A stretch of DNA of 50,193 bases, the filler included, from Jimgerdemannia flammicorona (lineage: Eukaryota): the NCBI GenBank assembly GCA_003990765.1. It is 2 parts of 2 records of this genome, joined end to end, with 100 filler letters (N's around TTAATTAATTAA, not from the genome) between each part and the next. Parts side by side here need not be neighbours in the genome. Positions count along the whole stretch, not along the records: positions 1 to 25,052 come from RBNJ01000888.1; 1 more part is not named here. One strand, given 5' to 3'. Every line of letters starts with the position of its first letter. Position 1 is the first letter of the stretch. The notes under the pieces were generated by a model that was given only the letters and a program-made list of their open reading frames with translations, did not search any database and had not been told where the DNA came from. A program made the translations under genes and the position numbers. This document shows positions 9,575 to 46,655 of the stretch, piece after piece.

Positions 9575-10095
9575 TACTTCTTTACTACTGGCAGAGGGCT
9601 GCAAATTTTATATACTCTCTCTACCAACTCTGCCAACCCTCTGGCCTGAGTACAGGCTGCTTGGAGATACTCTATACTGCTGGCAGAGGGCTGCAAATTT
9701 TGCATGCTTCCTCCACCAATCCTACTCCCTTTGCCAGCTCTACCAATATCCCCATCCCAGATACCAGTGGCTTGGAGCTGCCCCTTACTACTGGCAGAGG
9801 GCTGTAAACTTTGCACACTCTCTTCACCAACCCTTTGGCCTGGGCACAGGCTGCTTGGGATTACCTCTTACTGCTAGTAGAGCCACAAATTTTGCATGCT
9901 CCCCCTGCCTACCCCACTCCCTCCACCAACCCCCTCCATCTCAGATACTTGTGGCTTGGGGCTGCCCCTTGCTGCTGATAGAGGGCTGCAAATTTTGTAC
10001 ACTCCCTCCACTGACTCCACCCACTAACTCAGATACTGACAGCATAGAGCTGTCCCTTACTGCTAGTAGAGGGCCACAAATTTTGCATACTCCCT
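9575..10095. repeat. Array of six ~35-bp motifs (cttRctRctggcagagggctgcaaattttgca) at 80-110 bp spacing; likely hAT subterminal region
   Basis: Copies near 9580, 9670, 9781, 9864, 9965 and 10054. Intervening sequences are related to each other. Lies just downstream of the hAT stop. Confidence 0.75.
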
Positions 10096-10261: not shown

Positions 10262-11320
10262 CTAAGATTTCAGATATATATATGCCTAGATTATCTCAGT
10301 ATTCAGTATATACCTCTTAGGGGTAACAAGATCTATCCCATCTGAGAACACTTGCTCAACAGGAGTACTGGTGGCAGGAATTACCAGGTAGTCCCAAACC
10401 ATACTATATAGGCTGGAGAAGTCTGTTTGATATAGCTGCAGTCATATACCCCAGTGGGTTGAGTGGTGGTTAGAACAGTGGTTAGGTTAGTAGATTAAAT
10501 TGACCCAATACAACCAACTGCCTGACAACCCACCTTCCACCAGTTGAGCACCTCTGCACTCTCCAGCAGGATCATATGGTCACCAGTGAGGTAAATAGTA
10601 AGTTCATCTATTGATAGCAGCTCTTCTACTAATGGCTCCCTCTTCTTCTTTCTGCTGAAGTAAATGTGAGATAAGAGAGATCTCTCAGTATATTTGTCTA
10701 GACTTCAGCCAGAACTTTGCAGTAGTGCATAGTTTTTCTAGTATATTTTGATTATGGCCTACTTGGCTCTCTCAATGAAGTGCTGCTCCCAGCCCTGATC
10801 TTTATAATATTGTAGCTTTAGGTATGGGTCCAGCATTGTTCAGAGAAAGAGAGTGAGATTTACAAGAGTTTCTCTGTTTTGGAAGAGATAATGACTATAT
10901 GTACTGATTGAGTATATAGTAACATCTGTTTTGGAGTAGTATTTTCTGAGCTTGCTTAGAGCAACCTCTATAGCATCTCTCTGATTCAAGCTTAATCATA
11001 AATTACCACAACTCTCCAGCCTATCCTCAAGCTTGTCCTCTAGTCAGTCAATCAAAAGATTATATACTGGTATTGTAGAGCTTATTGTTGGGGTGGTTTG
11101 TTTGACTATATCCTTCATACAATCATTGAAACACTGGAAGTTATATCTAGTAAGGTATTATATTGTACAGAGGTAGATAAAATGAGTATGAGGCTAGAGC
11201 AATTATCACTTACTTTCAAAACTCTGACAATATTCCTAAGTATGTCCCACTTGTTTTCACCTATAACCTCACCCTACATTTCTCTATTGGTAGCAACTGT
11301 TGAATCTATTAGCTTTTTTT
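10262..11320 (-). pseudogene. hAT-family transposase, C-terminal half, intron-containing, decayed
   Basis: Minus-strand translation: KWDILRNIVRVLK/CFNDC..TTPTISSTIPVYNLLID..KLRKYY..MLDPYLKLQYY..DELTIYL..VLNWWK/..FSSLYSMVWDYLVIPATSTPVEQVFS..LKS*, i.e. the hAT dimerisation domain. GT-AG introns at 11134-11213 and 10436-10533 keep the frame. Confidence 0.9.
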
Positions 11321-11406
11321 GTTTTGTTTTTTTTTAAAAAAAAAAAAAAAAATTCTCAATTATCTAAAACAAGTTACTTCAGTCAACTGAAAAAAAGAAT
11401 ACATAC

Positions 11407-12928
11407 TGTCATATAGTGGTCGCTGAGTCCTTCAAATATGCCAGATTCTCTTCAAGATGTATCTCTTAGACTACCTCAAGTTTGTTATAAGCAAGTTCTT
11501 ATTGGAGTACCTTCTCAAGGTCTTATAGTCCTCAAAATTCTTATCTTTAAACTGTCTTGTTATCTTTTAGATTACTTGCAAGAAAGTATGTGTATTGCAC
11601 TAAGTAGGCTGAATGGACTGACTTTATTTCAGAGGAAATAAGAGGAGTATTTATACAAAATATAATTCAATAGTTGCTAAGATATAAAGCTAAATATAAA
11701 TTCCAATAACTAAAATGAAATACAGGACAGGAAAAACTACTAAGTTCCAGGGTCAGTACTGATAGTTGTACAGGTTCAGGATACTGATATAATTCTAGTG
11801 ATATAGGAAAATAGTGCTGGAATAATTCAGTGTTATATCAGAATGCCAGTACTGGCATAACTCAGTATAACAAAGAACTTCAGAGTAGAATTTTCAAGAC
11901 CATAGGGGCTTCATCCTCATTGTTACTGAAGGAGATAAGATCTGCAAATTTGTTGTTATCATACATTTCGCATGCTTCAATATCACATAGGATGATGTCA
12001 TTGCTGATGATGTCATCACATTTGGCAGTGACAGGAAGGAGGTCTGGGGCTCTCCAGTCTATGAGGTTCTCTTCCACAAAATAGAGAACAAATGTGGGTT
12101 CTTGAGGAGGTCTAACCTGGATGCTTGGGCCTTAGAATACTGAGATCAATCTTTGCAGGAATTGGTCTGGGTTGTCCTGGAGGATGGGATACCAGAGGTC
12201 TTCTACTTCATCACTATTGAGAGTAATAGTAGACTGGGCTTCTGTAGCTACTCTGGTTTCTAGTGTATTGATATAGCTGGATGACAGATCTCTGAAATCT
12301 GAGACTCTAATATAATTCAAGTTAGAGATTGACTATGGTGCATGTCTGAAGATCTGATGGATCTTTTTAGCTATCCTTGCTTTACGTATATCCATGAGAG
12401 TGGCATCTTGTAACTCTTGGGGGCTGGCCTGTGGGAACTCCTGGCAGAGGAGGTTTCCTATTTCATACTCCTGCCATATTTGGAGATATTCAGTAGCAAT
12501 GGTGATCCTTGTTTCCATTTCACAGTGGTGGAGAATATAATGATAAGGATCACTAGTACCCATGTTAACACTAGGAGTCCTTTTTGAGTGAGTCCTTATG
12601 GCTCTTCTGATGTTTTGGAACATCCTTTCTTTGACTGAGATGTCTTGGTAGTTCCTTGACCTTGAGGTTTGGTGAGCAGCAGGCATTTCATTTGTGGTAA
12701 GTCTTTGAGCTATTTTGGGATTGGTGGGTCTTGTTGATTGCTGCTACTGTGGTTCCTTGATCCTTCTTTTATATTCCTCAAGATATCTGAACTGTGGTCA
12801 CAATGACTCACAGTTGGTTCTCATTGCTCATCTCATATACCATATGATCTTCTTGTACTCCAATCTGATGGCTTGTAAGGAAAGGCTGTCTCCTGTGCTG
12901 ATGTCATCATTCTAGGGTCACTGTTATA
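11407..12928 (-). repeat. Family A 3' LTR (1522 bp)
   Basis: Direct repeat of 18610-20146. PPT-like aggaggaaaa (12929-12938, minus) abuts it. TATA-like gtataaatac on minus near 11650. Confidence 0.95.
11880..12686 (-). pseudogene. U3-encoded accessory ORF of family A (3' LTR copy), unknown function
   Basis: ORFs 12333-12686, 12132-12320 and 11880-12077 share one frame, 807 nt without indels, the same length as the 5' LTR copy. Homologous to the family B U3 ORF. Confidence 0.75.
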
Positions 12929-13259
12929 TTTTCCTCCTGAATAAGAATCTTCTCAAGTGTCCTTATTCATTGGTCCAGTCCTGAAAAATTTGCTGATTCC
13001 ATAACCTCTAGTAAGGGGTCGAAAAGTGGTATTTATGGGCTGGTGTCTTCCCTATATATTTTGGTGTGATGGTGAAGAGTCACTCCCTTCATATAAAGCA
13101 AGGGCCTGATTCTGATCTTGACCAATCAGTTGATGGTTCGAACTCCTCTAGCTTTAAAAGTCTCATGGATGAGTAGTTGCTAGTAGTATATCCCTTAGAT
13201 AATGGTCCAGACAGATAGCCTACTGGTCATGAGACATGCTGTTACAATTCGCAGACTAG

Positions 13260-14400
13260 AACCTTGTGGGTGGTCATCACATTTTGCTTCTCTTGTATAG
13301 GTTTGTGATACTTCTTGAGTCTGTTTCTGTGCACCATGGTAGGCAGTATGATCCCTGAGATTTTTCTAAGCCAGAAGGTAGTTTCCTTGATATCTTGTAC
13401 ATAGAAGAGTCCTTCCCATTTGGGCTTCAGTTTTTGCAACTATGAGGCTTCTACTATATTTTGATACAGTAGGACCTTTTCTCTAATTTGGATGGATTCT
13501 AGGGTCTTATAATTCTTTTCTGCATTCTTCTTTGTCAGTGCTTGTGATTTGATAATATAATCTTCAGCCTTCTTCCTAATTTAGTGTAGTCTCTGGATTT
13601 CTGTATTAATCCATCTCCAAGTTAGGTCTAGATTTATAGCTGAGGTTCCATCAGAATCTTCTTCTCTGAAGAGCAGTTCCCTTGGGGTAAAGTGTGTACT
13701 CTGTGACCATATATCTTGTAGGACAGAGAGAGCAGTTGGGAGATAATTATCCCAATTCTCATATGTCTCTGAGATCTTCACCAGGATGTTCTTGAGAGTC
13801 TTGTTGGTTCTCTCTGTCTATCCATTTCCTTGAGGATGGTACATGGTGGTCTTGATGTGCTGGATCTTGTATTTCTGATTCATTATCTCATGGAATCCAT
13901 TGACAAATTCTATACCACAGTCTGTTGTGATTTGCTTCAGTGTCTTGTAGTAGCAGATGATTTCTTAGTACAGGAAGTCAGCTATAGAGAGGGCATTGGC
14001 TTCTTGTAATATTCCTGCTTTTATCTATTTGGTAAAGAGGTCTACAATAACTATAATATAGCAGTTTCCTAATAGTATTACTGGTAGTGGCCCAATGATA
14101 TCCATTGCAATGTGGTAGAAGGGGATAGGCTCAATTCTTGATGACCCAGGTACCTGGTCTTGCTGATCATATTTCTGTTTTTGGCACTTGTTATACTCTT
14201 TGACAAATTGGCACAGGTTTTCTTCTATCTTAGGCCACTACATGGTTCTTCTTGCCTTATTATGTATATGTATTGGTTTCTCCTAGGTATCCTTGCTCAT
14301 GTACTTCCTTCATTACTTGATAATTTTTATATTCAAGTATTACTAGCTTTCCTCCTTTTCTGAGTATAGTGTTGTCTAGTTCAAACTGTTTTTAAGTCTG
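13260..14400 (-). pseudogene. Family A integrase with GPY/F C-terminus, no chromodomain
   Basis: IAMDIIGPLP, ITTDCGIEF, MYHPQGNG..ERTNKTLK, WDNYLPTAL, KLKPKWEGLFYV..VHRNRLKKYHK. Confidence 0.9.
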
Positions 14401-14499
14401 GTTGATAATGGAGATTGTCCAGGGTTCAAGGTGGTTGGGCATCTTCTACTGCCCAAGATAGCTGATTAATCCATAGTATAACTCCTTATTCATGTTGAG

Positions 14500-15870
14500 T
14501 AATCTTGATGGAGGTGTTTCAGGGTGTCCTTGAGAGTGCATCAGCATTGGTGTTGGTTCTTCCTGAGTGGTGCTTGACAGTACAGTCATATTCTTACAAC
14601 CTGTAGATCCATCTAATATATATTCCTTTAGGGTTCAGAGTGGGGAATAGCCTGGCAAGAGCAGAATGGTCTGTTTGAATGGTGAAGTGTTTCCTGGCTA
14701 GGTAGTAGTGGAACTTGTCTACTGCCCAAACTACTGCTAAGCATTCGAGCTTGCATAACTCATAGTTCTGTTCTGCTCTACAGGTACCTCAGCTTGCATA
14801 GGAGATGACATATTCATATCCATCTTTCTTCTGAGCTAGGACTGCTCTAAGTCCTATAGCACTCACATCTGTCTGCAGGATGAATTCTAGGTTTCAATCT
14901 GGTCTTCAGAGGATAGGTACTTGGGTCAACCTGGCCTTGAGTTTATTGAAGGTTTCTTGGTGTTCCTTGGTCCATTTGAATTTGGTTTTCTTCTTCAGTA
15001 GCTCATAGATAGGTGCTGCAATATTAGAGTATCCTTTGATGAATCTTCTATAGTAGCTGGCCAGTTCAAGGAAGGCATAGACTTCTGTAGTCATTCTGGG
15101 TCTTAGGTAGGCTACAATAGCCTCAATCTTCATAGAGTCTATGTAGATTCTGGTCTAGTTGATGAGGTGTCCTAGATAGGCAATTTCTTGAGCTACAAAC
15201 TTGCATTTCTTGGGCTTGATGTAAAGGCCATGCTCCTTGAGCTTCTTGAGGGCTAGCTGTATGTGATTGACATATTCCTGTGCAGTATTGCTGAAGATAA
15301 TTACATCATCAATATAGACAAAGAGCCATTTTCCAATCTTGTTGCTGAAGACTCTATTCATCATTTGCTGGAAACTTGCTGGGGCATTATACATTCCAAA
15401 TAGCATTCACAGGTAGATATAGGTGGCATCAGATGTGATGAAGGCTGATTTCTCACTGGCATCTTAAGTGAGACCAATCTGATGGAAGCCTGAGAACAGA
15501 TCCAAGGTGGTGTAGTATTTGGCTTCACTTCCAAGAGTGGTAAGGATTTCTTGAATATTTGGCAAGGGCTGTCTATCCTTCTTGGTGATGGCATTGAGCT
15601 TCTTGTAGTCAATGCAGAGTCTTGGTACAAACTCTCCAGGCTTGCTTCCTTTCTTTGGGGTGAGGACAATAGATGAAGCCCAGGGACTAATAGCTTGCTT
15701 GATGATTCTGGCTTCTTCCATTTCCTTGAGTTTTGCTTGCAGACATTCTCTATAGGCAGGTGGTGTGGGTCTGGCTTTCTGGTAGATGGGCTTGGTATCA
15801 CCAGTGTCAACTTTGTGATAGTACTTGGATTCTTGATTGTGGATATCTCTGAAGTCTGTAGCAAGTACTC
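14500..15870 (-). pseudogene. Family A reverse transcriptase and RNase H
   Basis: SPWASSIVL..RLCIDYKKLN..LDLFSGFHQI, MLFGMYNAPASFQ..VYIDD, FILQTDVS, KLECLAVVWAV, TDHSAL, NTNADALSR. Confidence 0.95.
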
Positions 15871-16004
15871 CTTCATTCTGGTGTAGGATCTTAAGAAGTT
15901 GTTCTTCTAGGGGAAGGTTTTCTCCAATAGTATATGTATGCTTGTTCTGGTCTTTGTCTTTCTTATGTTTAAGTTCAGTAATCTTGGTGGTGGCATAGGC
16001 TCCT

Positions 16005-16400
16005 CTTCCAGTAGATCCAAAGCCTTGTTCTCCTCTCTTAGTCTTGATAAGTTCAATGGCTTCAGTGATCTTGGGTTTCTTAATTTCATGGATCAGCATC
16101 AGGCCAATCCTGTCATACTTCTTGACTTTGAATGGGGTGGTGGAGTTGTGATTCCTGATTATGAGGAAGATCTTGCCAGTGTAATCAGGGTCAATTACTC
16201 CTCCTTCAACTGAGATTTTGCTTTTGGCCAGACTGCTCCTGGTCTTGATAATTCCAGCATAGTTCTCTGGTAGCTTGACTCCAATTCCAGTGCCAAGTAG
16301 AGTGGTAATCTGTGGTTTAAGGATAGCATCTTGAATGCTGGCAAGGTCCATTCCTATGGCTCCTTCAGTCTTGTATTCTGGGGTCTTGGCTTCAGGGTGG
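16005..16400 (-). pseudogene. dut: dUTPase domain of family A pol, between protease and RT
   Basis: MDLAS, TGIGVKLPENYAGIIKTRSSLA, VEGGVIDPDYTG, YDRIGLM, RGEQGFGSTG: trimeric dUTPase motifs, in frame with RT in ORF 15464-16351. Confidence 0.92.
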
Positions 16401-16513
16401 AACTTCTTGACTTTGAGGGTGATATCTGGTTCTTGTTCTTTCTCATCATCACTGTCAGCTTGAAGCTCTGGGGGCTGGTCATCTTCTTCATGTTTCTGTT
16501 AGTGGATTTTCCT

Positions 16514-16630
16514 GACTTCACTGATACAGGACCAGCAGTCATTCAGGTATTCAGAGCAGTACATTCTAGTACCATAGAGGCATCTTCCTTGAGGGGCATA
16601 GCCATTGATAACCTTGTTGTACCACTGCTC
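16514..16630 (-). other. Conserved putative Zn-binding module (C-x-H/Y-x12-C-x2-C) in family A pol
   Basis: EQWYNKVINGYAPQGRCLYGTRMYCSEYLNDCWSCISEV aligns without gaps to family B 36055-36186. Confidence 0.65.
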
Positions 16631-16769
16631 ATCTGTGAGCTTGAGTGTCTTATTCTTATTCTTGTTCTTGTTCTTGTTCACTGAGTACATGAAGACCTCT
16701 GTGTCCTCTTCATCTCCTTCCTCCATGTCTGGTAGAACTCCTTTGTAGACATTGATAGAGACTCATACC

Positions 16770-17120
16770 TTTTTTCCTCTATAGTTGATCTGCATCTTCT
16801 GGGCATTGAGGTCAATGATGGCCTTGGCCTTGTGAGGTCATTGGTTGCCAATAAGGATGTCATAGTTGGTGGCACTTGTAACAATCACATCTACTGAGAT
16901 GGTAGCTCCTCCTATCTTGATGGGGACTTCTCAGATTTTGCCAAGGGAGGTAGCTCATATACCATCTGCTATAACATAGACCATCTTGGTGGACTCTTCA
17001 ATGTCCCAACCTAGGTGGTCAATTGCCTTCTTGCTCATAAGGTATCCTCCTACATTAGTATCAATGATGGCATCAAAGATATAGTCTTTGATCTGACATA
17101 GAGTATAGGCTGATGTCTTG
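16770..17120 (-). pseudogene. Family A aspartic protease
   Basis: AYTLCQIKDYIFDAIIDTNVGGYLMSK (decayed DTG), YVIADG, YDILIGNQ. Confidence 0.8.
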
Positions 17121-17425
17121 CAATGGTCTTCAGATTCTTTACCTGAGTTTTTGGATTCTTCCTGTACATTGTGAGCTTCTACAATATTGTACTCTTGATT
17201 CTTGACAGTAGTTGTAAGTCCTACTCTCAACTGCTGTCTGAAGACAGAGACTTTGGCTAGCTATCCAAAAGTAGCATTGACCTTCTGCTCCTTAAGATTC
17301 TTGTAGATATTATACTGGTGGATCTTGGTCTTGCACAGCTTCTGTTTCTTCTTGCTTTCACTTTTTCCTAAGACTGGAGTAGTGTCTTCAATGATTTGGC
17401 AGGCAGCTTTATCTAACTCCATGTC

Positions 17426-18553
17426 TTAATCAATCTCCTCAGGTTGAGTCTTACTTTGAATAGTGATAGCTAGGGTCTTCTTTGGTCTTCCAACTGGCTT
17501 ACTGTTGCTTTTCTTATCATAGGGCTTGGACCAAGTTCTGATACCTTCAGTAACAGGGTAGAATTTAAGCTTCTCATAGTATTCTTCATCATCAGTATTG
17601 CTAATCTCCTCAATGACTACTATATTAGTTTGTTCTCTAGTTCTACTAGCATTGCTTGGTTGGGCTTTGTGTCTTGTTTCGATTATGTAATTCTTTACAT
17701 AGTGACCTTCTTCTCCACATCTGAAGCATGTGATATTGCATTCTTCTATAGCAGCTACAAATCTCTGCACTGGTCTCCTGTTGGCACTTTGGACTTCTCT
17801 AACAACATTACAAAGGTATGCAGTCATCTCAGCAAACTGCTTGGTAAGTTCCTCCACTGGGTCAGCTTTGGCTGCCTTGGGGGTAGGTGGAGTTGGTTGT
17901 CTGTTTACAACTGTAGCAGGTATGATACTAGTTGGCTTTGATGGCTCCATCTTGATGCCAGTTATTTTTTCCATTGAGTGTTTGGCAGGGTGTCTGGCAG
18001 TCCAATATCTCTGTATAAAGACCACTTTCTGATCAAGGGTCAGTACAGCTGGGGTAGACTGGATTGCTAGGGCAATTTCAGGGTAAACTCCTTTAAGGAA
18101 GGTTGAATCTGCTATTTGTTCCTTGAGGGCATCATCATAGCCAGCCAAGACAATCTGGTGGCAGATTTAGGTATAGAATGAGTTGAGATCTTCACTAAGT
18201 CCCTGGCAGATAGTTTTGAGTTGATCCTTGAAAGCTTGCTTGATCTCTTCAGTATAGTATATTGTTCTGAGGAGGCCTTCATGTTGGCAAGTTTGGCTGT
18301 ACCATTATCAGTAATAGTAGCTATATTGAACTTGTCTCTGGCAGATCCTCTGAGGCTGACTGGTAGAAGGGCTAATTGTACATCCACACCAAGGGCTTGT
18401 ATGGTAGTAAATTGTTCAAAGTCTTCAATGAAGGTCAGGATTGACTCTTCAGTAGTATATCTATAGAATGTGGAGAGATATATTTTTATCTTGTCTTGAA
18501 TTCTTGCAGGGGTGACACTTGTAGTCAGAGTAGTTATTGTGGGGGTTATTCAT
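17426..18553 (-). pseudogene. Family A gag with CCHC zinc knuckle
   Basis: ATG at 18553 just after the PBS; FLKGVYPEI; CFRCGEEGHYVKNY (final Cys mutated to Tyr). Confidence 0.85.
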
Positions 18554-18591
18554 TTTTCAGCTTAAAAGTGAGGGATTCATCTTGAATCACC

Positions 18592-18609
18592 AGCCAATGG
18601 GCACCAAGT
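18592..18609 (-). promoter_or_regulatory. Family A primer-binding site (TGGTGCCCATTGG; tRNA unassigned)
   Basis: TGG (complement of tRNA CCA) 3 nt after the 5' LTR end. Confidence 0.7.
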
Positions 18610-20146
18610 TGTTACATAGTGGTTGCTGAGTCTTTCAAATATATCAGATTCTCTTCAAGGTATATCTCTTAGACTAACTCAAGTTTGTTATAAGCAATTT
18701 CTTATTGGAGTGCCTTCCCAAGGTCTTATAGTCCTCAAACTTCTTATTTTTAAACTGTCTTATTATCTTTTAGATTGCTTGCAAGAAAGTATGTGTATTG
18801 CACTGAGTAGGCTGAATGGACTGACTTTATTTCAGAGGAAATAAGAGGAGTATTTATACAAAATATAATTCAATGGTTGCTAAGATATAAAGCTAAATAT
18901 AAATTCCAATAACTAAAATGAAATGCCAGGACAGGAAAACTGCTAAGTTCCAGGGTTGGCACTGATGGTTGTACAGATTCAGGATGCTGGTATAATTCTG
19001 GTAGTATAGGAAAATGGTGCTGGAATAATTCAGTATTACATCAGAATACCAGTGCTGATATAACTCAGTATAACCAAAGAACTTTAGAGCAGAATATTCA
19101 AGACCATAGGGGCTTCATCCTTGTTATCACTGAAGAAGATGGAATCTGTGAATTCATCATCATTGCACATTTTGCATGCTTCCATATCGCATGGGATAAC
19201 ATCATCACCAATGATGTCATCACATTCAGCAGTGGCAGGAAGGAGGTCTGGAGCTCTCCAGTCTATGAGGTTCTCTTCCACAAAATAGGGAACAAATGTG
19301 GGGTCTTGGGGAGATCTAATCTGGATGCTTGGGCCTTAGAATACTGAGATCAATCTTTGCAGGAATTGGTCTGGGTTGTTCTGGAGAATGGGATGCCAGA
19401 AGTCTTCTACTTCATCACTATTGAGAGTGATAGTGGACTGGGCTTCTGTAGCTACTCTAGTTTCTAGTACATTGATATGGCAGGATGACAGGTCTCTAAA
19501 ATCTGAGACTCTAATATACTTCAAGTTGGAGATTGACCATGATGTATGCCTGAAGATCTGATGGATCTTCTTAGCTGTCCTTACTTCACATATATCTATG
19601 GAAGTGGCATCTTGTAACTCTTGAGGGCTGGCCTGTGGGAACTCCCAGCAGGGGAGGTTTCCTATTTTATACTTCTGCCATATTTGGAGGCATTTGGTAG
19701 CAATGGTGATTCTTGTTTCCATTTAATGATGGTAGAGAATATAGTGATAAGGGTCACTAGTACCTAGATTGGCACTAGGAGTTCTTCTTATGTGGGTCCT
19801 CATGGCTCTTCTGATGTCTTGAAACATCCTTTCCTCAACTGAGGTACCTTGGTAGTTCCTTGACCTTGAGGTTTGGCAAGCAGTAGGCATTTCATTTATA
19901 GTAAGTCTTTGAGCTATTTTGGGATTGGTGAGTCTTGTTGGTTGCTGCTACTGCAGTTCCTTGATCCTTCTTTTATATTCCTCAAGATATCTGAACTGTG
20001 GTCACAATGACTCACAGTTGGTCATCATTACTCATCTCATAGCCTGAGTGAGTCATGCTGTATGATCTTCCTGTACTCTGATCTGGTGGCTTATAAGGGA
20101 TTGCTGTCTTCTGTGCTGATGTCATTATTCTGAGGTCACTGTTACA
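18610..20146 (-). repeat. Family A 5' LTR (1537 bp)
   Basis: tgttaca..tgttaca ends; direct repeat of 11407-12928; followed on minus by the PBS. Confidence 0.95.
19084..19890 (-). pseudogene. U3-encoded accessory ORF of family A (5' LTR copy)
   Basis: Includes ORFs 19336-19722 and 19084-19281 in one frame; 807 nt. Confidence 0.75.
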
Positions 20147-20169
20147 GTATATAAGTTAATGGACTTAGC

Positions 20170-23100
20170 AATCTTACTTGATTTTGAAGAAAAGGCAAAC
20201 TTGAGCAAAAAGATATTTGTCTATACTTTGTATTATCTCAAACTACTTATCTGCAAGATCATACAATACTACCCAGTCATATTATAGACTCTTATAGAAC
20301 TGATACTTATAGTAGATAAGTTGGTAAAATATAGCTAAATCTTATTTTGTATCTACAAATAGGTCATGAACTCCAATTGATAAAGTAGTAAAGATATTAA
20401 TTTATAGATATCAAGAAGAGATATTAGAAATATCACAAGAAAGTTTACAGGCTGATTTAGTATAAATAACTTACTGTTAGACTTGAAAGTTTGGAAAGAT
20501 TCTTCTTATTTACTTGATGACAATAGTCATTTTCAGATGCAAACTAGAGATTATAGAAAAATATCTGAGTAGTAAGTTTGAGATCACATAGCCTAAACAA
20601 TTTTGAAACTTTATTAATATAGAGTATATCTTTAGAGATGCTAGTACTCAGGTTCTAGTATTTCCTAGTTACTAATAAACTTGAGATATCTATGAGCTTG
20701 TTAGTTATAATATGATTGAGCTTATCCTCAAGTACTGTTCAGTACTCTATAAACTTGACAACTTAGAGAAGAGGATTATGTTTGTTTATTCTTCAATATA
20801 ATATCTTAACTTTCATATGATGTTGATGTTCAGTTATCTCTATATATATCAGTATTATCTAGTATATCAAATGTTTGAGTTGACTCAGAAATATGCTGCA
20901 AAGAGTAGAGTTTTTCAAAGTTCAGTAAACTTAATGAGATCTCTGCCAACTGCTCATTTAGTTCACTAAATTGAGATAATAGTATATCTTGATCTATATG
21001 TATTTTTTCAGTCTAGACTATTGAGATATAGAAGTACTACTTAATGAATGTTGTGAGGTATTTGACAATACTAAGTGATTTGAAAATCCCTCTCATATAT
21101 AGGAGGAATATCTTTTAAAGGAATTTTTTTTTTAGTTAAAGAGTTTATAAACAGTTCTCAAACTCACTATAATATATATAATACTCACATATATCAGTTA
21201 TTGATATTTAGTTACATTTATTTGACTAAGATTTGAAATTTCAGTAGAGAATTTTTTGAGCTCAGAATATCAAAAAAAACAAGCTAAATGCAGAGATCTC
21301 ACTCTAGTATAAGTAGATTTGTTATATATATATCAAATGAACTCTTGATAAGATTAAGAGTTAGATTGACCAAATGTTTCCAGATACTTTTTTTCACTTG
21401 GTGAAGTATATCAGTCATAATTATTGAATAAATATTTATAAGAGGTAGTTCCTATGTATATTCTGGAGTTTGGTTGATAGATAATATAATTGTTAGTAAA
21501 AAATATTTATTCAAAAATAAGTAAAATTAATATATATAATTAGTTTCCACAATCTATGTTCTTGAAGGCTCTTCTTAGTTATTTTATATTTAGTAAATCT
21601 GTATACTTACAATTGCTCTCTATATCTCAGAAACTATTTATAGAGGATATATCTTATTAAGATATAAAAATTACAAGTGAGGGGTTATATATTTTGGACA
21701 AACTTGATTTATATAGATTAGGTAGATCAAATATATATATCTTTGGATAATTGACCATGAAGGACATAACTACTGGATAGTAATTATAAAGTTTACCATC
21801 TAGTCTATACATAATAATACTATTACAAAATATATTCATGATTAGCTATTAAATAAAAATTTTATCTAAATAATTTTGTAATTATAAATATTATCTTTTT
21901 CTTACTACAGATAGTCTGTGAAGTACCCATGATATATATCTATAATAAAGAACTGCTTTTACTTTACAGAAGGAGTCTTTTTCAATCTTCTTGAGATTCT
22001 CTTTAATAATTAGAAAACATATAATCACTGGGAATATATTTAGAGAGATTGCTAATAGAAATATATAGTGGATATATTTTGGTACATTCAAATAGATTAC
22101 AATATATTTGATTAATCTCAAATAATACCAGGATTACTATTGCATCAAGTGGGAGTTTCTTCTATAGTTTGGAAAGAGAATTATAGTTTGTGAAAGTAAG
22201 TATACTAACTGAGCACCTGCAAACTTAAAATTAATTATTATTTTACCTGTATTTGCCACCAAAAACCACTCTAATATATCTTGAAGTACTTTTATATATT
22301 ATTTATAATATAGTGTTTCTCTGCTTTAAATTTTATATTATTCTTGAATAAAGTATTTGACATCAGCTTGAGTAGAATAGTAAGTAGATCTTGATAGAAC
22401 AGTATATGTTCACTAGTCCAAGTTTTAGACATATAAGTGATGTTAAAAACTTTATAATTGAAGAGCTAATTTGAAAAAGAGAATTACTGAATGTTCATTA
22501 TTTTTACAGAAATATTAATTATTTAATTACATATTACTCCATTTTCAGCTACTATTTCTAAAAGTTTTATTATCTCTCTTGAGTTTGTGAACTGGAGAGA
22601 CTCATTTACTATTGAAATTCTTCTATTTACAAATATATTAAGTTTATCTGCAACTTTTCAGAATATATTTTTACTTTAAAACAATGGATTCATAAGCCAA
22701 ATTTATCTATCATTCTTCTAAGAATATAAAGAATTGTTCACATCAGTTATAAATATCTATCTGAGTTTAAAAATAAATTCATTATACTATATAAGTACTT
22801 TCTTACTATTGATAATCTAACCACCAGTTGGTTTGTAAATAATATGATCCTTGCTGAACTCCAATATAGTAGATAGACTTCTCTGATCTTAAATTGAATT
22901 ATCATTCTCCCTGAATAATTGTCTTTTCTTTTGAATTAAATTATCATTTTTACTAAACAATAGGCTTTTTTGTTTCTGAATTGAAGATAGACTATTACTG
23001 CTGATATTATCTTAAATTATATATGTATACTTAGTATGATAATATAAAATCTTCTAAGTTCATTTATATAGACTGCTCAAACTTGAAATATATGTAGAAT

Positions 23101-23290
23101 TCAGTATTAATTTACAAACTGTAGATGAATTTATAGATGATGATAATATAATGTTAAAGTTACTAAAATTTTGATGAACTGAAAATTTAAGAATAGACTT
23201 ATCATTCTGATATCATGTAAGTATATCATATATCTTACAGATATATCAAGTCAATCCTGAGACAGATTTGTACTTTAGGTTACAATATGA
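20170..23290 (-). pseudogene. Plavaka-type (CMC/CACTA-related) transposase, heavily decayed, intron-containing
   Basis: N-terminal C2H2-like YCNLKYKSVSGLT*YI; ILFYQDLL..NTLF; WWQIQ/KKLPLDAIVILVL (intron 22162-22246); LDGKLYNYYPVVMSFMVNYPK (cf. DG..R..P....ADYPE); NFEKLYSLQH..FD.LDN..TEHQH..VK..Y..NK.N; YDWVV..FAQVCLFF. Confidence 0.8.
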
Positions 23291-24773
23291 GTAAAAAAGC
23301 TTCAAGCTGATATTAGGTTTAAAGTAGAAAAGGATTTGAAAGACAATATAAATTTTAACAATAAGTTTATGATTACAAAATATACTGGACTAAAATAGAA
23401 TTCTTTAGCTAATTGGCTTTATACTTTTGCTCTTGCTTAACATACATACTTACTTACTTAATATACATATTTAATATATACTTATTTAATATACTTATAC
23501 TTTATTATATTAACTAAACTTATTATGTTGTCATATTAACTAAATGTAAGTAAGTAAGATTTACATTCACTTATTAGACTTTCTGATAACATCTGTATAT
23601 ATATAACTATTATAAATATTGTAGGTATAAAAAGAGATCTTTATCTGAAAGAATTATATCTTTTCTTACCCCCTTTACCACAATCTCTTCATGCCTAAAG
23701 ACAACAGATTATATCCTAAGATGAACAAAATATACTCCAGTATGAACAATAAGTACTAAACTGTAAAAAATATATATCAAGCTATAAATAAATTATATCA
23801 GTTCTGTGAAACTAAAGAGCAGCAGATCATGGATAGGCCACAGACCACAAAGGTGTGCAAATCTAAGAAGCAGACTATAGACAGACTGTATCAGACTATG
23901 AAGATATATAAAATCAAGAAGTAGACCATATTATATCTAGACAAGATCAATACTAGTAAGTTTATAGTTTCCAACTTCAATGAGAGGACAGCTAAATAGC
24001 AAAAGACTATATATATAAGATAAAAATAAAGACAGAATTGGTAAACAAGACAGAGGTAGCAAACAAGGCAGAGATGATGAATGACCTAAGCTTATAATTC
24101 AAGATAATGAGATGTTTTTATAAAGTAAGATACTTTCAAATAATAATATACTTCTGGATAATGAGATGCTTCAGAATGACAATATGAAGACTTGTTTGAT
24201 CAGATATATAGGACAGATGGTTAAGTAAGATAGAAAAAGAAATGAGTAAGTTGTTTTTAGAAATAAGTTCATAAATTATAGTTTGTATATTATAGCTTAT
24301 TTATAAATACAAATTGAATTTTTGTATCATAATTTAGCAGATCCATATGTATCAGTAATCTCTGCCAGAAATATAAGATTAATGAAGTAATCTGGAAGCT
24401 TACAGTGAACTACTTCTTCAATATCTTTTTCTTGGAGATCTTTTTCCAAAGTACAACAGTAATCTGAAAACAGATATTATTATTAAAATTTTAAAAGATG
24501 TGAGCTTAAAGACCAAAGGCAGTGATAGTTCAATTTATGCTATAGTGAGTGTTTAATTTACATTCTATTCATATATTTATTTGACAGTTCATGAACTCAA
24601 CCATTTTCATTTTTATTAAAAAAATAGCTATACCATTAAATTATGATCTACTGTTCTCACATTTATAAAGTCTTTGACAAAAAGTTCAATTAAAACTTCT
24701 CTGATATAGACCAGCTAAGATCTATAGCTCTAAAAGATCTTACTTATGTTTGCCAACAAGTAGTACAAAATTT

Positions 24774-25052: not shown

Positions 25053-25152
25053 NNNNNNNNNNNNNNNNNNNNNNNNNNNNNNNNNNNNNNNNNNNNTTAA
25101 TTAATTAANNNNNNNNNNNNNNNNNNNNNNNNNNNNNNNNNNNNNNNNNNNN
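25053..25152. other. Artificial contig linker N44-TTAATTAATTAA-N44
   Basis: Exactly 100 bp, symmetric, with a 12-mer giving stops in all six frames. Confidence 0.97.
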
Positions 25153-25336: not shown

Positions 25337-26859
25337 GATAATAGAGATGAGAGGAGATGAGAGTATGAGATTATGAGTTGAGCTGATGAGATTGCAAATT
25401 CAATATACATGGCAAGGAAGAATTTGAAACCTTCTGTACAAAACTTGAGTCACTCCTAAACACTGTTGGTCTAAGATATATTGCCAATGATGAAGTATAT
25501 AATAGTACAAGAGTAGACTATCTATTTGATGCACTACCTGAATGGCTTACCAGAAAAATCCAAGAACAAGGCTGCCTAGTTGGTTGTGATCATCAACAAT
25601 GATGCCTAACCAGAATCAAGACCATGATCAAGCAAATTCTAACAGCTGGACCAATTCTGCCCTGAAGACAATTTAACAACAAGAAAAAGACTTAGATCAA
25701 GAAAGAAGAACCCAAGTATGAAGCATCTCAAGCTCCCTCAACATCCACTTTATGGACACCTAGAAATCATAAATCCACCCAGCCAAGTACCTTTAAGAAA
25801 CTCACCAAAGGAGAAAGAAATGAACTTTGAAGAAGCAGAGTATACTTCTATTGCTGAAAGACAGGACACATGGCCAGTATCTGCCCTAACTGAAAACCCC
25901 AAACAATAATATGAGCAACTGTTACTACTCTGTACCACCTCAATAACCTGACTACCAGAATACTGGACTTTGTCAAGTTAAGACAAACTACTAAGGCCCC
26001 AATCAAAGGAAGTCAAAAAGTAGCTAGATATGACCTGTATGCAGTTAAAGAAGCTACAGTTTCCAACCAAGAAGTCAAGTAAGTCTATACAGGAATCAGC
26101 ATCCAAATTCCTGAAGGACATGTTGGAAGAATATGCTGTTGCAGCAGCCTAGCATTGAAAGAACTCTCAGTAGAAGGAGGAGTCATTGATAAAGATTATA
26201 CAGGCGAAATTATTGTCCTCATCCAAAACCATAGTTGGATACTCTTCAAGATCTCTATTGGTTTCTACATTACCCAGATCTTATTTGAGAAAATCGAGTC
26301 AACTTTGACAGTCAAGGAAGTCTCTGAACTACTATCTACCATCCAAGGATCCAAAGGATTTAACTTATCAAATAAGACTCCAGCCCAATCTACTATGAGC
26401 AAAGAAGAATAATTCTATAAGAAAATTGAAGATAGATATATACCAAGTGGCTGATATCCCCATGACATTAGAATATACTCTTCTCAAATGATCAATGATT
26501 ATTTCTCTTATGTCAATGAATTGGCTCAAAGAAGAACCAATAGAAGGAAAACTCCTACAACTGAAATTACTACTATTGGATCAGACAAACTGCTTATACT
26601 CCAAGCTTTTGTCAACTGAGCACCTGTTAAGATTATAATAGATAGCAGTGCCTCAGGCAACTTCATTAATGAAGAAACAGCCAACAGACTTAAGGTCTTT
26701 ACCTCTCCAGTATAATAAACTCAAGCAGTTGCTACAGCTGATAGAACCTCATATGTTATCAGCAAGGAAGTCTGCAATCTACCCTTCTGAATTGGTGACT
26801 ACCAAGTACATGTTACCCTCCAGATCATACCACTCTCTGACAATGAAATCATCCTTGGA

Positions 26860-28361
26860 TATAAGAGGGTTACTTTTTAGGGTAATCATTACATAGTTCT
26901 GGAAGGGTTTTCTAGAAGTTCTGGATGTTCTGGAAGACTATTTTCTTATGGTCAAGATCAATTTCATAAGGAGTATGTCCTCTATGCTTATTGATTTCAA
27001 GATCAGGTTGATATCTCAACCAAAGTCCTTTTTCAGAATAGTTCTGGATGTTCAGGATTTTCTATGTTTCAGGAAGTTTAAGAAACTAAGACCAGCTTAG
27101 TTGAATTGGTATATCACTGCAGACAATACCCAATTAGGAAATTTCATGATGGAGTTAGGAGTAGGACCTAACAGGGGAGTGGATTTACTTAAGAGTGGTT
27201 TGTGGGTTATTAAATAGGTTTATTCACTATTCATAATATTGCTATACTAAGAGTAGTTGTGTAAAGGGATATTGTGGGAAAGTACTCAGGAGTTGTGTTT
27301 GGATTGTTCAGGTCTTCAGGTCTGAGATTCTAAGGTCTGGGGGAGGGGGTATTTATACTAGTGAGAGGCTATCTGGACTATGCTAAATATGGATGTAGCA
27401 CTAAGTACCTTGTTGAGTTGGAATACAGTCACATAGTACAAGAGTGATCTGACATGTCAAGAGATCATCTGACTGCTGAGTCAGTTCACAGTCATATCAT
27501 ATAAGACTAATCTAACTATACTATGACAGCTAAACTATTTATAGGTTTAGATACTATCTGGGTAGTCTTTGATGATATTACTATTGATGATACCATCGCT
27601 GGTAAAGTCTGAGCAGTTTTCTGACTTCTGACATCATCAGTTTCAAGGTGTTGTCACTTCTATCTCTTGCAAGATTAAGGCTGTCCTTGGTGGTGGTGGT
27701 TGTACAAGGATAACAGGTCTTGGTTCTCTTTTTTTTTAGTCTACTGGTGCATTTGCGAGGACTGGCCATTCTTGTCTAGGGTGAGGGCTCTCAATGTCAT
27801 GGCTGGGGATTCAAACCTCTCAGAAATGATATTTTCTGTAATCTGAGGTAATTTCTAGTAGTAATATCTGTCACGTGGATGGCTTGAGATTGGTTTCGAC
27901 AATGTTGGCTTTCTTGAGTTCAGATAAAGCATCTGTCACTCTCCAATAGAAGTGATATAGATAGAGCAAATGAAGTTATTCAAATGTGTTTTACTTCTGC
28001 TAAGTAATGAGGTCTTGTATAGTCACAGTGTATCTTGGTCTTGAGTTGATAAGTGCAGTTTGTGAACCTTTTGGTAGATGAGATAGGGTTCTTCTTGTCT
28101 TGATTTGAGTTTGGTACTTTTGGTTTCCTTTTGTAATAGTATAGTATACTAAACTAGTTATAGTGATTTGGAGTCAGTCTTGTAGTTATAGTACTTCTTC
28201 TAGTATTCTTATATCTTGGCAGTGGGTTCTCGTGCTTGCTGGCATATTTCATATAACCAGATGATCTCTTCAGTAACTTGTTTTGTAGTCTCGTATGTAG
28301 TTTCCAAATTAGCTCTGAGAATGCCATGCAATTTTGGTGGCTTGGAGGTTGTGTGCTTACA
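26860..28361 (-). mobile_element. Solo LTR, family B variant with a different U3 cassette (1502 bp)
   Basis: t(a)taag..cttaca ends; perfect 5-bp TSD TTGGA (26855-26859, 28362-28366) in the B1 protease region EIILG|TPW. 26860-27590 and the last ~35 bp match B LTRs; 27590-28325 does not. Confidence 0.92.
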
Positions 28362-30059
28362 TTGGAACCCCATGGTTAAAATAAGAGAACCCCATGATCA
28401 ATTGGGTAAACCATTCTCTAACCATCAAGAAAGGACATCACAACTTCAAACTGCAAGATGAAAAGGACCCACTCAACTCTAGTGACCCTGGACCAAAGAT
28501 CATTCATATCAATAAGCTACAACTTAAGAAATTAGCCAAGAAATGCCCTCTCTTTGCCATCTCCATCCACCCATCCAAAGGAGAACCTGAGAACTTTAAA
28601 GAAGACTTTTCCAAAGTTGACAGCTGTGTCAGACCACTACTTCAGAAATTCTGAGATATATTTCCAAAAAACTTCCAAAAGGTCTACCTCCTAAATGAGC
28701 AGTAGACCATACCATCAAGACCATCCCAGATGCCAAGCCAGCCTTCAAGTCAATCTACCACATATCTCCAAGAGAAATTAATGTACTCAAGAAAGAAATT
28801 GACAAACTCCTAGAACAAGGATTCATCAGACCCAGTATATTACTCTATGGTACACCAGTCCTCTTTATTGTCAAGAAAGGAGGAGACTTGCAAATATATA
28901 TTGATTACCATGACCTCAATGAACAGACCATCAAGAACTGCTACCCACTACCTAGAATCGATGAAATATTTGACAGGCTTACTAACCCACAATTTATAAG
29001 CTCTTTTGACCTGTGAAATAGTTACTAGCAAATTGCCATGAAAGAAGATAACATCTACAAGACAGTCTTCCAAACTTGCTATGGACAATTCGAGTTTCTG
29101 GTTATGTCTTTTAGCTTAACTAATGCTCCTGCAACCTTCCAGACCCTGATGAATACTATTCTGCACCCATACCTGAACAAATTTGTTGTTGTCTACATTG
29201 ATGATATCTTAGTCTTCAGCAAAACCCTGGAGGAACATCTCAAACACCTTGAACTAGTACTACTGAAACTCTGAGAAAACTGACTCTTTGCAAAACTCAG
29301 TAAGTATGAATTCCTCCTGAAGGAAATTTAATTCCTTGAATACATTATCACACCAAATGAAATCAAAGTAGACCCCAGCAAAATCTCTGCAATCAAGGAC
29401 TGGCCCAGATCCAAGAAGCTGAAAGACCTCCAGTTATTCCTGGAATTAGCAAATTATTACAGGCAATTTGTTACCAACTTTGCCAAAATTGCTACTGCCC
29501 TCACCCAAATGACTAAGTACAGTAAGAAAGAAGAACAGCTGTAGACCATAAAATAAGAAAAAGATTTCAACAATTTTGCAAATTGGGGACCTGAATAAGA
29601 TATAGCCTTTCAAGCACTAAAAGATGCCTTGATAACCACTCCAGTACTTTAAGTGGCAAACTCTGCCCTACCATATGAAGTTACTACTGATGCCTCTGAT
29701 CTAGCCCTTGGAGCAGTGCTTATATAAGAAGGACATCCTGTGGCCTATCATTCCTGCAAGTTCAATGATACTGAAATCAACCATGTAACTTATGAGAAAG
29801 AAATGTTAGCCATTGTAGATACTCTGATCAAATGGTGACCATATCTAGAAGAAGTACACTTTACCATATTAACTGACCATAAGTCATTAGTCAATATCAA
29901 GATGCAGGCTACTCTTTCTCAAAAGCAAGCCAGGTAGATGAAAGTCCTCACCAACTTTGACTATGAAATCCAGTATCACCCTGGTAAGAAAAATATTGTT
30001 GCTAATGCAATCTCCAGACTATCAATCAAAGAGGTTATCCAAACTCTCACCTTGATTAC

Positions 30060-32128: not shown

Positions 32129-32552
32129 ACTCTCCCCTTCTTAGCTTTCAACGTCCTTGTCAGGGCCTTCTAATTTTGTTCTAGTATTGTTACACTATTT
32201 AGGAGGTCAAAAGTCCAGTAAAGTCCATTTTTTCAGAAAGTGGTATGCTCATAGTACAGTTGCCTAATGCATTGGATTTATACATTAAAGGGTTGTGTGT
32301 TCAATGCCATATGCTGGAAGTGATTCTGATGTCATTCACTGCTGGAGAATTTCCTCTAAGAAATCTTCTTAAATGTCTATGCCTCATTTCCCACCAGTGG
32401 TATGGGGAGAATAGACTGGCTTTCAGTTTTGCTATTTTTTTCAGAGGGTCGGTATTCTTATCTTGTTTTGCTAAGTTCTTGATTTTTGATAATTATAGTG
32501 TTTGGGAGGATAATATATAGTATATACAGATAGGTGCAGAGTATTTGGTTTT

Positions 32553-33930: not shown

Positions 33931-34059
33931 TTGCTTGTCAGTATTATCACTATTCAGGATTTCTCAGAGTGCTTGAGCTTCCTTATTATTGGCACATACT
34001 GCAATAATTTACTCTATAATAGTGTTGGTAACCAAGGTGAGAGTATGGATAACTTCTTC

Positions 34060-35400: not shown

Positions 35401-35689
35401 TAGGCCTTTCAGAAGCTTTTTTGGGAATATGTCTCGAAATTTCTGGAGTAGTGGTCTGACATGGCTGTCAACTTTGGAAAAATCTTCTTCAGAGTTCTCG
35501 GGTTCTCCTTTGGATGGGCAGATGGAGATGGCGAAGAGAGGGCATTTCTTGGCCAATTTCTTGAGTTGTAGCTTATTGATGTGGGTGATCTTTGGTCCAG
35601 GGTCACTAGAACTGAGTGGGTTCTTTTCACCTTACAGTTTGAAGTTGTGGCGTCCTTTCTTGATGGTCAGAGAATAGTTTACCCAATCG

Positions 35690-36000
35690 ATCATGGGGTT
35701 CTCTTGTTTCAACTATGGAGTTTCAAGGATGATTTCATTGTCAGAGAGTGGTACGATCTGGAGGGTAACATGTACTTGATAGTCACCAATTCAGAAGGGT
35801 AGATTGTAGACTTCCTTGCTGATAACATGTGAGGTTCCATCAGCTGTGGCAACTGCTTGAGTTTGTTATACCAGAGAGGTGAAGACCTTAAGTCTGTTGG
35901 CTGTCTCTTCACTGATGAAGTTGCCTGAGGCACCACTGTCTATCATAATCTTGACAGATACTTGATTGACAAAAGCTTTAAGTGTAAGCAGTTTGTCTGA
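35690..36000 (-). pseudogene. B2 aspartic protease
   Basis: KIMIDSGASGNFISE, ATADG, EIILETP. Confidence 0.9.
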
Positions 36001-36054
36001 TCCAATGGTAGTGATTTCAGTTGTTTGACCTTTCCTTCTGTTGGTTCTTCTTTG

Positions 36055-36186: not shown

Positions 36187-36204
36187 AGTAGATTGGGCTG
36201 GGGC

Positions 36205-36620: not shown

Positions 36621-36649
36621 TTCTGGTGGTCAGGTTGTTGAGATGGTGC

Positions 36650-46652: not shown

Positions 46653-46655
46653 ATA

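Follow-up and report, generated by a model that had tools for sequence, protein, structure and literature searches.

Can the long terminal repeat (LTR) of a retrotransposon hold a gene for a protein? Retrotransposon LTRs are treated as non-coding control regions and are masked by annotation pipelines. The question is raised by a stretch of 50,193 nucleotides from the genome of Jimgerdemannia flammicorona (GCA_003990765.1), which consists of two joined parts and which we will call the window. The initial annotation of this stretch proposed that two LTR retrotransposons, A and B, carry homologous open reading frames (ORFs) inside their LTRs. We think it likely that two deeply diverged, dUTPase-bearing Ty3/gypsy lineages each carry a complete accessory-protein gene in the sense orientation within the LTR, and that these proteins belong to no known family. 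The LTR-embedded accessory gene family is real and conserved, or there are two such families if the genes of A and B are unrelated. A gene wholly inside an LTR is duplicated in every element, survives in solo LTRs, and could be expressed independently of gag-pol. If our reading is true, it describes a new route by which retrotransposons can deliver trans-acting factors, as well as a source of orphan "hypothetical proteins" in genomes rich in transposable elements and in soil metagenomes.

Protein-coding genes within the LTRs

Comparing the window to itself (blastn) revealed two LTR elements, both complete and both on the minus strand: A at 11407-20146 and B at 30060-40714. Element A has a 3' LTR of 1522 nt (11407-12928, minus strand; its blastn match is 18610-20144) and a 5' LTR of 1537 nt (18610-20146, minus strand). 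The LTRs of element B are both 2069 nt (30060-32128 for the 3' LTR and 38646-40714 for the 5' LTR, both on the minus strand). A second B-type element, C, has its 3' LTR on the plus strand (42613-44703). We will refer to the 3' and 5' LTR copies as A3, A5, B3, and B5, and to the copy in the 3' LTR of element C as C or C3. The two LTRs are 87.9% identical in A (blastn) and 89.6% identical in B. These repeats, with a polypurine tract (PPT) and a primer-binding site (PBS), bear out the proposed location of all of the copies in LTRs.

The A-type gene in A3 (11880-12686, minus strand) is 807 nt, or 268 codons plus a stop. It begins with MPAAH, has internal stops at codons 118 (TAG) and 185 (TAA), and scores 458 bits against the A-family profile (hmmsearch). 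The gene in A5 (19084-19890, minus strand) is also 807 nt, or 268 codons plus a stop, with internal stops at codons 56 (TAA) and 185 (TAA). The TAA at codon 185 is common to both copies, and both frames begin with ATG. The B-type gene in B3 (30744-31841, minus strand) is 1098 nt, or 365 codons plus a stop, and has four internal stops (three TGA and one TAA). The copy in LTR C (42902-43999, plus strand) has the same length of 1098 nt (365 codons plus a stop), seven internal stops, and no insertion or deletion (indel) relative to B3. The copy in B5 (39333-40427, minus strand) is 1095 nt and its frame is in three pieces (40427-40077, 40080-39580, and 39578-39336); its 1-nt and 2-nt deletions are 500 nt apart and jointly restore the frame. 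All of the A- and B-type frames are in the sense orientation and lie entirely within the LTRs. The coordinates, strands, frames, and lengths first given for these ORFs were right (two of 807 nt and two of 1098 nt, with 1095 nt for the third B-type copy).

These frames are far more open than expected. A3, A5, B3, and C have 2, 2, 4, and 7 in-frame stops, as compared to 14.8-21.7 expected from composition-matched shuffles (14.9 for A3), and none of the 2,000 shuffles was as open. The remaining five frames over the LTR genes have 9-44 stops. Antisense ORFs over the same stretch were considered and are not especially open (9-39 stops). Reading the LTR ORF as an extension of integrase is ruled out by the intervening stops, the PPT, and the start of the LTR. 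We conclude that both LTR frames are genuine protein-coding genes that are now broken in the window's copies.

Open relatives are present in public metagenomes. We ran two protein searches, a word-based search over 5.8 billion clusters and a HMMER search over 1.84 billion representatives. For type A, 6 of the 245 candidates from the word-based search were relatives (P0006-P0011; E = 1.7e-117 to 1.7e-34, 55-77% identity), and the HMMER pass identified 5 clusters (E = 1e-138 to 1e-13), 4 of which were new (P0012-P0015). In total, there are 10 distinct open A-type metagenome proteins with 29-81% identity, and in an alignment of 11 A-type sequences, the others are 29-81% identical to P0006. The conserved blocks are WxEYEI, AKKxHQxFxH, WNPxLxDxPDQ, and FxGPxI, and the proteins have a common start (MP..R) and a common end (LNF.L). 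For type B, just 1 of 851 candidates was a relative (P0005; 247 amino acids, 60% identity, E = 3.3e-92). Scans of viral contigs with P0005 and with the A alignment gave pattern matches and no relative.

A metagenome scan with the A alignment gave 35 stretches that matched the pattern, one of which was a true relative. This contig (L001; 1535 nt) contains an unbroken A-type copy of 291 codons with the MP..R start. Because L001 is 47% GC and its ratio of observed to expected CpG is 0.50, it is not hypermutated. No LTR end or PPT is recognizable in the 375 nt upstream of its ATG. L001 also contains a 33-nt direct repeat (170-202 and 1481-1513; 82% identity, 1311 nt apart) that brackets the intact gene, and the first copy of this repeat aligns near the start of LTR A.

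We also placed contigs from four soil metagenome runs on positions 11300-14000 of the window to obtain depth and base readings. The stop that is common to both A copies aligns with glutamine in the aligned relatives, and at the first base of this stop (12134), a letter other than the window's was found in 2259.5 of 2470.8, 211 of 237, 32 of 34, and 116 of 116 depth units. That is, most of the soil-metagenome contigs have a sense codon there. Across 11755-12027, contigs with at least 80% likeness nearly vanish (in run X1, the depth is 6-147 versus about 1000 on either side). This segment, which comprises the acidic tail of A and the stretch past its stop, is hypervariable within the LTR family. 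Two points weigh against the family as we describe it: it is tiny in databases, with all of the relatives on contigs of about 1-1.6 kb, and placement in an LTR could be checked only in the window and through the PBS junctions of soil contigs.

Comparisons between lineages point to constraint on the encoded proteins. Between A and L001, the proportions of differences at codon positions 1, 2, and 3 are 0.52, 0.35, and 0.61, and the proportions of nonsynonymous and synonymous sites that differ (pN and pS) are 0.43 and 0.74, with dS saturated. B3 and C3 derive from two separate insertions and have pN/pS = 0.31, as compared to 0.51 ± 0.07 under a null of 500 simulations with the same spectrum (which ignores dinucleotide context); none of the simulations was as low. 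In the two shifted frames, pN/pS is 0.64 and 0.93. Furthermore, there are no indel events between B3 and C3 in the 1098-nt ORF and six in the remaining 969 nt of the LTR. A dN/dS near 1, which was to count against a selected protein, did not occur. On the other side of the balance, besides the saturation of dS and the simple null, are two results from the window. The pN/pS for A3 versus A5 (0.42) is not clearly under its null of 0.57 (42 of 500 simulations were as low), and the density of substitutions is higher in the ORF than in the rest of the LTR (0.134 and 0.097 for A, 0.173 and 0.112 for B3 versus C3, and 0.119 and 0.084 for B3 versus B5).

Nearly every difference between LTRs is a transition; the transition/transversion ratios are 9.4 (A3 versus A5), 52 (B3 versus B5), and 9.0 (B3 versus C3). 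Differences within LTR pairs are mostly at CpA/TpG and CpC. The observed/expected CpG ratio is 0.03-0.33 in the window's ORFs and 0.09 across the whole window, versus 0.50 in L001. This pattern points to cytosine deamination or a process like repeat-induced point mutation (RIP), not plain ageing. Because of this mode of decay, the divergence of the LTRs is unusable as a clock. The window's copies of the LTR genes are dead, broken by transition hypermutation; the signal of selection stems from the comparison between lineages, and the window's copies look as if they decay freely. With regard to the suggestion of a selected accessory protein, each ORF family is a real conserved coding gene with open relatives, and the window's own copies are decaying neutrally. 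The LTR gene is present and open in diverged members and under constraint, as would be expected of a conserved additional ORF in a lineage of LTR retrotransposons; for type B, the evidence is one relative and the comparison of B3 to C3.

Placement in the LTR and features of the proteins

In LTR A, the ATG is at LTR position 243 or 257, the stop is at 1049 or 1063, and a TATA box (GTATAAATACT) is at about 1273 or 1288, with AATAAA 27 nt later. In the window, this main TATA box is at 11646-11656 (minus strand; 18849-18859 in the 5' LTR), about 225 nt past the stop of the gene, and the AATAAA, a candidate poly(A) signal, is at 11623-11628 (minus strand; 18826-18831 in the 5' LTR). In LTR B, the ATG is at 288, the stop is at 1385, GTATAAATA is at about 1574, and AATAAA is at 1709. 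The main TATA box of LTR B (GTATAAATACC) is at 30545-30555 (minus strand), with AATAAA at 30415-30420. The GTATAAATA core of the main TATA box of A is also present in B-type LTRs. Over the LTRs, the gene starts 243-290 nt in and its stop is 190-225 nt before the main TATA box, and GTATAAATAC and AATAAA lie downstream of the gene in every LTR. Because the main TATA box and AATAAA come after the gene, the gene is most likely in the U3 region, going by the usual layout. A U3 location had been deduced from a sense ORF upstream of the TATA box: the orientation and the position upstream of a strong TATA box and AATAAA hold up, and the strict assignment to U3 is by deduction from the boxes only.

A putative TATA-like box also precedes the gene. 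In LTR A, this box (TATAAAAG) is at 12766-12773 (minus strand; 19970-19977 in the 5' LTR), about 80 nt before the ATG, and TATAAAAG is also found in L001, about 83 nt before the ATG. In LTR B, the putative box (TATATATA) is at 31910-31917 (minus strand), about 70 nt before the ATG, and it is also present in C. We take TGASTCA to be an AP-1/Gcn4-type binding site. It occurs 23 times in the window, as compared to 12.1 expected, and none of 100 shuffles reached 23. In B-type LTRs, each of the two TATA boxes is preceded by a pair of TGASTCA sites: one pair is at LTR positions 114 and 145, and the other is at about 1449 and 1512. In the 3' LTR of B, two sites are upstream (31978-31984 and 32009-32015) and one is between the gene and the TATA box (30674-30680); B5 and C have two sites between the gene and the TATA box. 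The arrangement suggests that the LTR gene may have its own promoter and use the poly(A) signal of the LTR. The leader just before the ATG of A (12688-12715, minus strand; AAAGACTTACCACAAA..) is nearly identical to positions 348-375 of L001, and the proteins are about 40% identical; this leader may be a conserved untranslated signal.

Several points weigh against this picture of the promoters. The upstream TATA-like box is short and could be due to chance, and it is absent in B5, which reads TACATATA. The promoter DNA of A versus B, or of the two modules within one LTR, has no significant similarity (in five comparisons, 16-162 of 200 shuffles reached the real score). The assignment to U3 is made from consensus boxes only. 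And no RNA run is among the listed holders of element A, which are four sets of DNA contigs from soil metagenomes and run X5 (of kind "?"), with 0.05-0.17 of the words; an addition from the same study has 0.01.

If the LTR gene is in U3, it would be carried by the genomic RNA as part of its 3' end. Additionally or instead, a short mRNA might be transcribed from the gene's own TATA-like box, which lies 70-85 nt upstream of the ATG, and end at the poly(A) signal of the LTR. Given such an mRNA with its own promoter, either LTR, or a solo LTR, could express the gene.

The type A proteins have about 270 residues and the type B proteins have about 365. In both types, helices are predicted in the first 130-140 residues or so, and the remainder is mostly coil. 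The net charge past residue 130 is -9 to -29. Across eight proteins, the maximum Kyte-Doolittle mean over 19 residues is 0.59-1.38, so there is no membrane-like segment. Thus, the LTR proteins look soluble; their N-terminal part is helical and their tail is acidic and disordered. These predictions and the net charge support the architecture that had been guessed at first. The tail is the most variable part of the A protein (in both the alignment and the contig depth). Hydrophobic-acidic motifs are kept, namely DLISF and DDVI..DVI in the tail of A and DDVI..D.I.DYPDS[VI] at the end of B.

We could not assign these proteins to any family or fold. Searches of Pfam-A (E ≤ 1) with four readings from the window and eight intact relatives found no family; the sole exception was a sub-threshold match of P0010 to NpmA (E = 0.026, 14.3 bits, as compared to a cut-off of 60). 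Neither profile had any matches to PDB sequences at E ≤ 10. The AlphaFold2 models are poor, with a predicted local distance difference test (pLDDT) of 50.3 and a predicted template modeling score (pTM) of 0.41 for A and a pLDDT of 31.1 and a pTM of 0.21 for B. With these poor models, Foldseek found nothing at E ≤ 0.001 in PDB or BFVD. The best hit from a wide fold search with VIA had Z = 4.2, which is below the noise level for helical models. In the ESM Atlas, the best score for P0006 was 0.86, below 0.9, and was to unnamed clusters whose few placed members are from Basidiomycota; the Atlas model of P0005 is itself disordered (pLDDT = 0.39) and gave no usable match. The domain was not recognized at the outset, and no already-described domain turned up in Pfam, the PDB sequences, or the fold searches.

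We infer that a small helical domain followed by an acidic tail with motifs would fit an adaptor or activation-type protein. The protein might be a trans-acting helper of the element, most likely an adaptor or an activator that works via its acidic tail, for instance on the LTR promoter. Both the quality of the models and the lack of support for this function from any homology weigh against it.

Retroviruses provide parallels. The sag gene of mouse mammary tumor virus (MMTV) encodes a superantigen, which is a type II membrane protein, in the U3 of a betaretroviral LTR, and MMTV also encodes a dUTPase. Like the LTR genes in J. flammicorona, sag is a sense ORF of about 300 codons that lies inside a long LTR (over 1.3 kb) and upstream of the TATA box, in a dUTPase-bearing element. 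Because of this placement, both LTRs contain such a gene, and the genomic RNA has it at its 3' end. The ORF of sag is wholly in U3 in the sense orientation; the ORFs described here are wholly in the LTR, upstream of the main TATA box and AATAAA, as judged from sequence alone. In contrast to Sag, the LTR proteins have no membrane-spanning segment (maximum hydropathy 1.38) and no match to Sag or to any other Pfam family, and their carriers are Ty3/gypsy retrotransposons without env. Lentiviral nef and bel/bet of foamy viruses are accessory ORFs that run into U3, and foamy viruses use a second promoter. The LTR genes are similar in that they would be accessory genes at the 3' end that overlap U3, a second promoter is possible, and an acidic trans-acting role is plausible. 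They differ in that the whole ORF, not just its end, is inside the LTR, and no match to these proteins by sequence or fold was found (with models at pLDDT 50 and 31). The LTR genes parallel MMTV sag, nef, and bel outside the retroviruses and could allow the acquisition of regulatory genes by retroelements to be tested in a simpler system.

Additional ORFs (aORFs) are described for LTR retrotransposons such as Ogre, Grande, RIRE2, and Retand of plants, including env-like ORFs; they lie upstream or downstream of gag-pol, mostly between pol and the 3' LTR (PMC7264820). Like these, the LTR gene is a conserved extra sense ORF without an assigned function in a Ty3/gypsy lineage, found in most copies and 3' of pol; unlike them, it is inside the LTR and hence duplicated. 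The phrase "in the LTR" does not occur in the portion of the review's text considered here (PMC7264820). In searches of open-access full text, we found no description of a protein gene embedded in the LTR of a retrotransposon.

Possible common origin of the A and B genes and other accounts

The A and B proteins were originally claimed to be homologous based on an alignment by eye. The alignment register was reproduced by hhalign and hmmsearch, and statistical significance was not. In BLASTP, the best E value between A and B is 0.64. In hhalign, E is 0.043, or 0.11 with a deeper A alignment, and the probability is 0.5-1.2%. The profile of A matched no B-type protein among the 1.84 billion representatives. 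We also compared the scores to those of shuffled sequences. For hhalign, 2 of 150 column shuffles of B reached the real score. For the A profile, 11 of 3,000 shuffles did so in the comparison to P0003, 484 of 3,000 for P0004, and 2,770 of 3,000 for P0005; and for the B profile, 16 of 3,000 shuffles did so in the comparison to P0014, with 208-490 of 3,000 for four other A proteins. Overall, p ranges from about 0.004 to 0.9. It is not demonstrated that A and B form one family by significant sequence or profile similarity. Two further details of the original alignment can be settled. As it had stated, no similarity between A and B is evident at the DNA level (none in the blastn self-comparison at E ≤ 1e-10). 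Two arginines in its B sequence had been restored by the annotator, and no copy in the window reads arginine at those positions.

That the two genes are unrelated, with different ORFs captured by, or evolved in, the same part of the LTR and a likeness due to chance and to shared helical and acidic composition, has in our view somewhat less than an even chance of being correct. The E values from BLASTP and hhalign, an hhalign probability of about 1% or less, the failure of the A profile to reach any B-type protein, and its scores for P0004 and P0005, which are no better than those of shuffles, are all as this account would predict. So are the different lengths (268 versus 365 codons) and the loss in the diverged members P0013-P0015 of the C-terminal YFVEENLID block of A; because this block is not kept in those members, we give it no weight. 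Independent origins do not readily explain why the register is the same across methods. Both hhalign and hmmsearch align WxEYEIGxxL of A with SSYYQIGxLL of B and AKKIHQIF of A with IACKHRELF of B, and the same register is selected when the A profile is matched to P0003 and when the B profile is matched to P0014, P0010, or P0013. They also do not readily explain why only 2 of 150, 11 of 3,000, and 16 of 3,000 shuffles reach the best real scores, or why, when all six frames of the window are scanned with the A profile, the N-terminus of B3 is the second-best match other than A itself (i-E = 0.66). Furthermore, the A and B genes agree in their place, orientation, and layout within the LTR and in their domain plan, in elements that both have the rare order of protease (PR), dUTPase, and reverse transcriptase (RT). 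Lastly, the gag of A has no match in element B (E = 7.9) and the RTs are only 41% identical. Because gag is undetectable between elements that are clearly related, a fast-evolving homolog is expected to be invisible. On balance, we consider a common origin of the A and B genes to be about an even call, tipped slightly in its favor.

Three other accounts concern the gene itself, whether or not A and B are related. One is that the ORF lies in a very long repeat (R) region: genomic transcripts would begin at the upstream TATA-like box, with the LTR gene as their first cistron and a repeat of it at their 3' end. This would fit with the TATA-like box that A, B3, C, and L001 have 70-85 nt before the ATG, with the TGASTCA sites ahead of that box, and with the leader (AAAGACTTACCACAAA), in which A and L001 resemble each other more closely than they do in the coding sequence. 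However, a second, stronger box (GTATAAATAC) that is common to A and B lies past the gene, with AATAAA 27-134 nt beyond it, an arrangement typical of U3 and R. To our knowledge, an R of over 1 kb with gag as a downstream cistron is unusual for Ty3/gypsy elements, and we think that this account is improbable. Alternatively, the ORF could be a passenger that is of no benefit to the element and was carried along as the LTR spread, whether as a piece of a host gene picked up by transduction or as the relic of a sequence that once coded for protein. It has no assignable function, the copies in the window decay freely, and transduction of host sequences by LTR elements has been described (PMC7264820). 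But the gene is open in members that are only 29-46% identical and that retain the same start, blocks, and end motif; the pattern across codon positions and pN < pS in the comparison to L001 also count against this account; and there is no host-type homolog among the 5.8 billion clusters or the 1.84 billion representatives, nor any Pfam family besides the sub-threshold NpmA. This makes a passenger quite unlikely. Finally, if the open frames were just a by-product of a T-poor sense strand, there would be no gene to explain. The sense strand is indeed rich in A and C, which lowers the frequency of stops generally, but the other two sense frames have 10-44 stops, none of the 2,000 composition-matched shuffles is as open, and independent open relatives exist. 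These results refute the idea, and we assign it a negligible probability.

The reading that we prefer, an LTR-embedded accessory gene in two lineages, can be extended to a more specific scenario, which we regard as doubtful. A clade of dUTPase-bearing Ty3/gypsy elements might have kept a self-contained LTR gene, with its own promoter and the LTR's poly(A) signal, since before the split of A and B (whose RTs are now 41% identical). Every LTR, including solo LTRs, would then be a small expression unit for an acidic trans-acting protein with a new fold that boosts the element's own promoter or blunts silencing by the host. It would be a retrotransposon counterpart of the regulatory genes of retroviruses.

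The carrier elements and the rest of the window

Both carriers are Ty3/gypsy (Metaviridae) LTR retrotransposons, as judged by their LTRs, PBS, and PPT and by the order of domains in pol. LTR A has TGTAACAG at its start and AACA or GACA at its end; the outermost two bases are TA in the 3' LTR and TG in the 5' LTR. The PPT (AGGAGGAAAA) is directly upstream of the 3' LTR, and the PBS (ACTTGGTGCCCATTGG) is next to the 5' LTR (ACTTGGTGCCCATTGGCTGG at 18590-18609). For element A, we saw no clear target-site duplication. The internal region of A (12929-18609, minus strand) encodes gag (with a CCHC motif), a PR region, dUTPase, RT, RNase H, and integrase, with stops and frameshifts. Pfam identifies zf-CCHC (E = 3e-4), dUTPase (E = 2.6e-26), RVT_1 (E = 5e-18), RT_RNaseH (E = 7e-29), and rve (E = 1.2e-6); the order of the domains is that of Ty3/gypsy elements, with dUTPase between PR and RT. 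Many copies of element A are found on the contigs of the four soil metagenome runs, and in contigs of all four runs, the LTR end at 11407 is joined to PBS sequence.

The LTRs of element B begin with TGTAAG and end with CTTACA. The 3' LTR has a PPT (AAGAAGGGGAGAG) upstream, the PBS (ACTTGGTAGCAGTGG) is at 38626-38645, and the target duplication is GTAAC/GTAAT. RVT_1 is found in element B, and by tblastn, B is 38%, 41%, and 30% identical to A in dUTPase, RT, and RNase H, respectively. Element B is inserted in element C, with internal parts of C on both sides of it, and the 3' LTR of C is preceded by the same PPT as in B. The dUTPase domain is at 15467-16498 (minus strand) in A and at 46440-46808 (plus strand) in a B-type copy (Pfam E = 2.9e-18).

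Ty3/gypsy elements that bear a dUTPase are known from fungi, namely PosPlaTy3-5 from Postia placenta and elements from Phanerochaete chrysosporium and Tuber melanosporum (PMC2864245). The order PR-dUTPase-RT is reported for a few of the fungal Ty3/gypsy elements (PMC2864245), and element A and the B-type copies share it. In the legend of Figure 3 of that article, some of the fungal elements are listed with an "add. ORF" whose function is unknown, and the part of the article's text considered here is silent as to its position (PMC2864245).

Nested and rearranged B-type elements occupy 25395-30059 and 40715-46660, including a fragment of a B-type LTR at 26862-27608. Downstream of the 3' LTR of C is a further internal piece of a B-type element (44926-46652) without a PBS. 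The 3' part of a third Ty3/gypsy element (48776-50193, minus strand) runs off the end of the window; it is largely open and includes Integrase_H2C2, rve, and SH3_Tf2-1. Past this element is an open frame of 219 codons (47039-47698, minus strand) that is of low complexity, rich in serine, threonine, and proline, and matches neither of the LTR protein profiles. Between elements A and B, positions 20001-24000 are AT-rich (25-27% GC). Two runs of 44 N's each (25053-25096 and 25109-25152) lie within the filler that joins the two parts of the window. Lastly, there is a diverged tandem duplication at 9582-10094 (72% identity, with an offset of about 200 nt).

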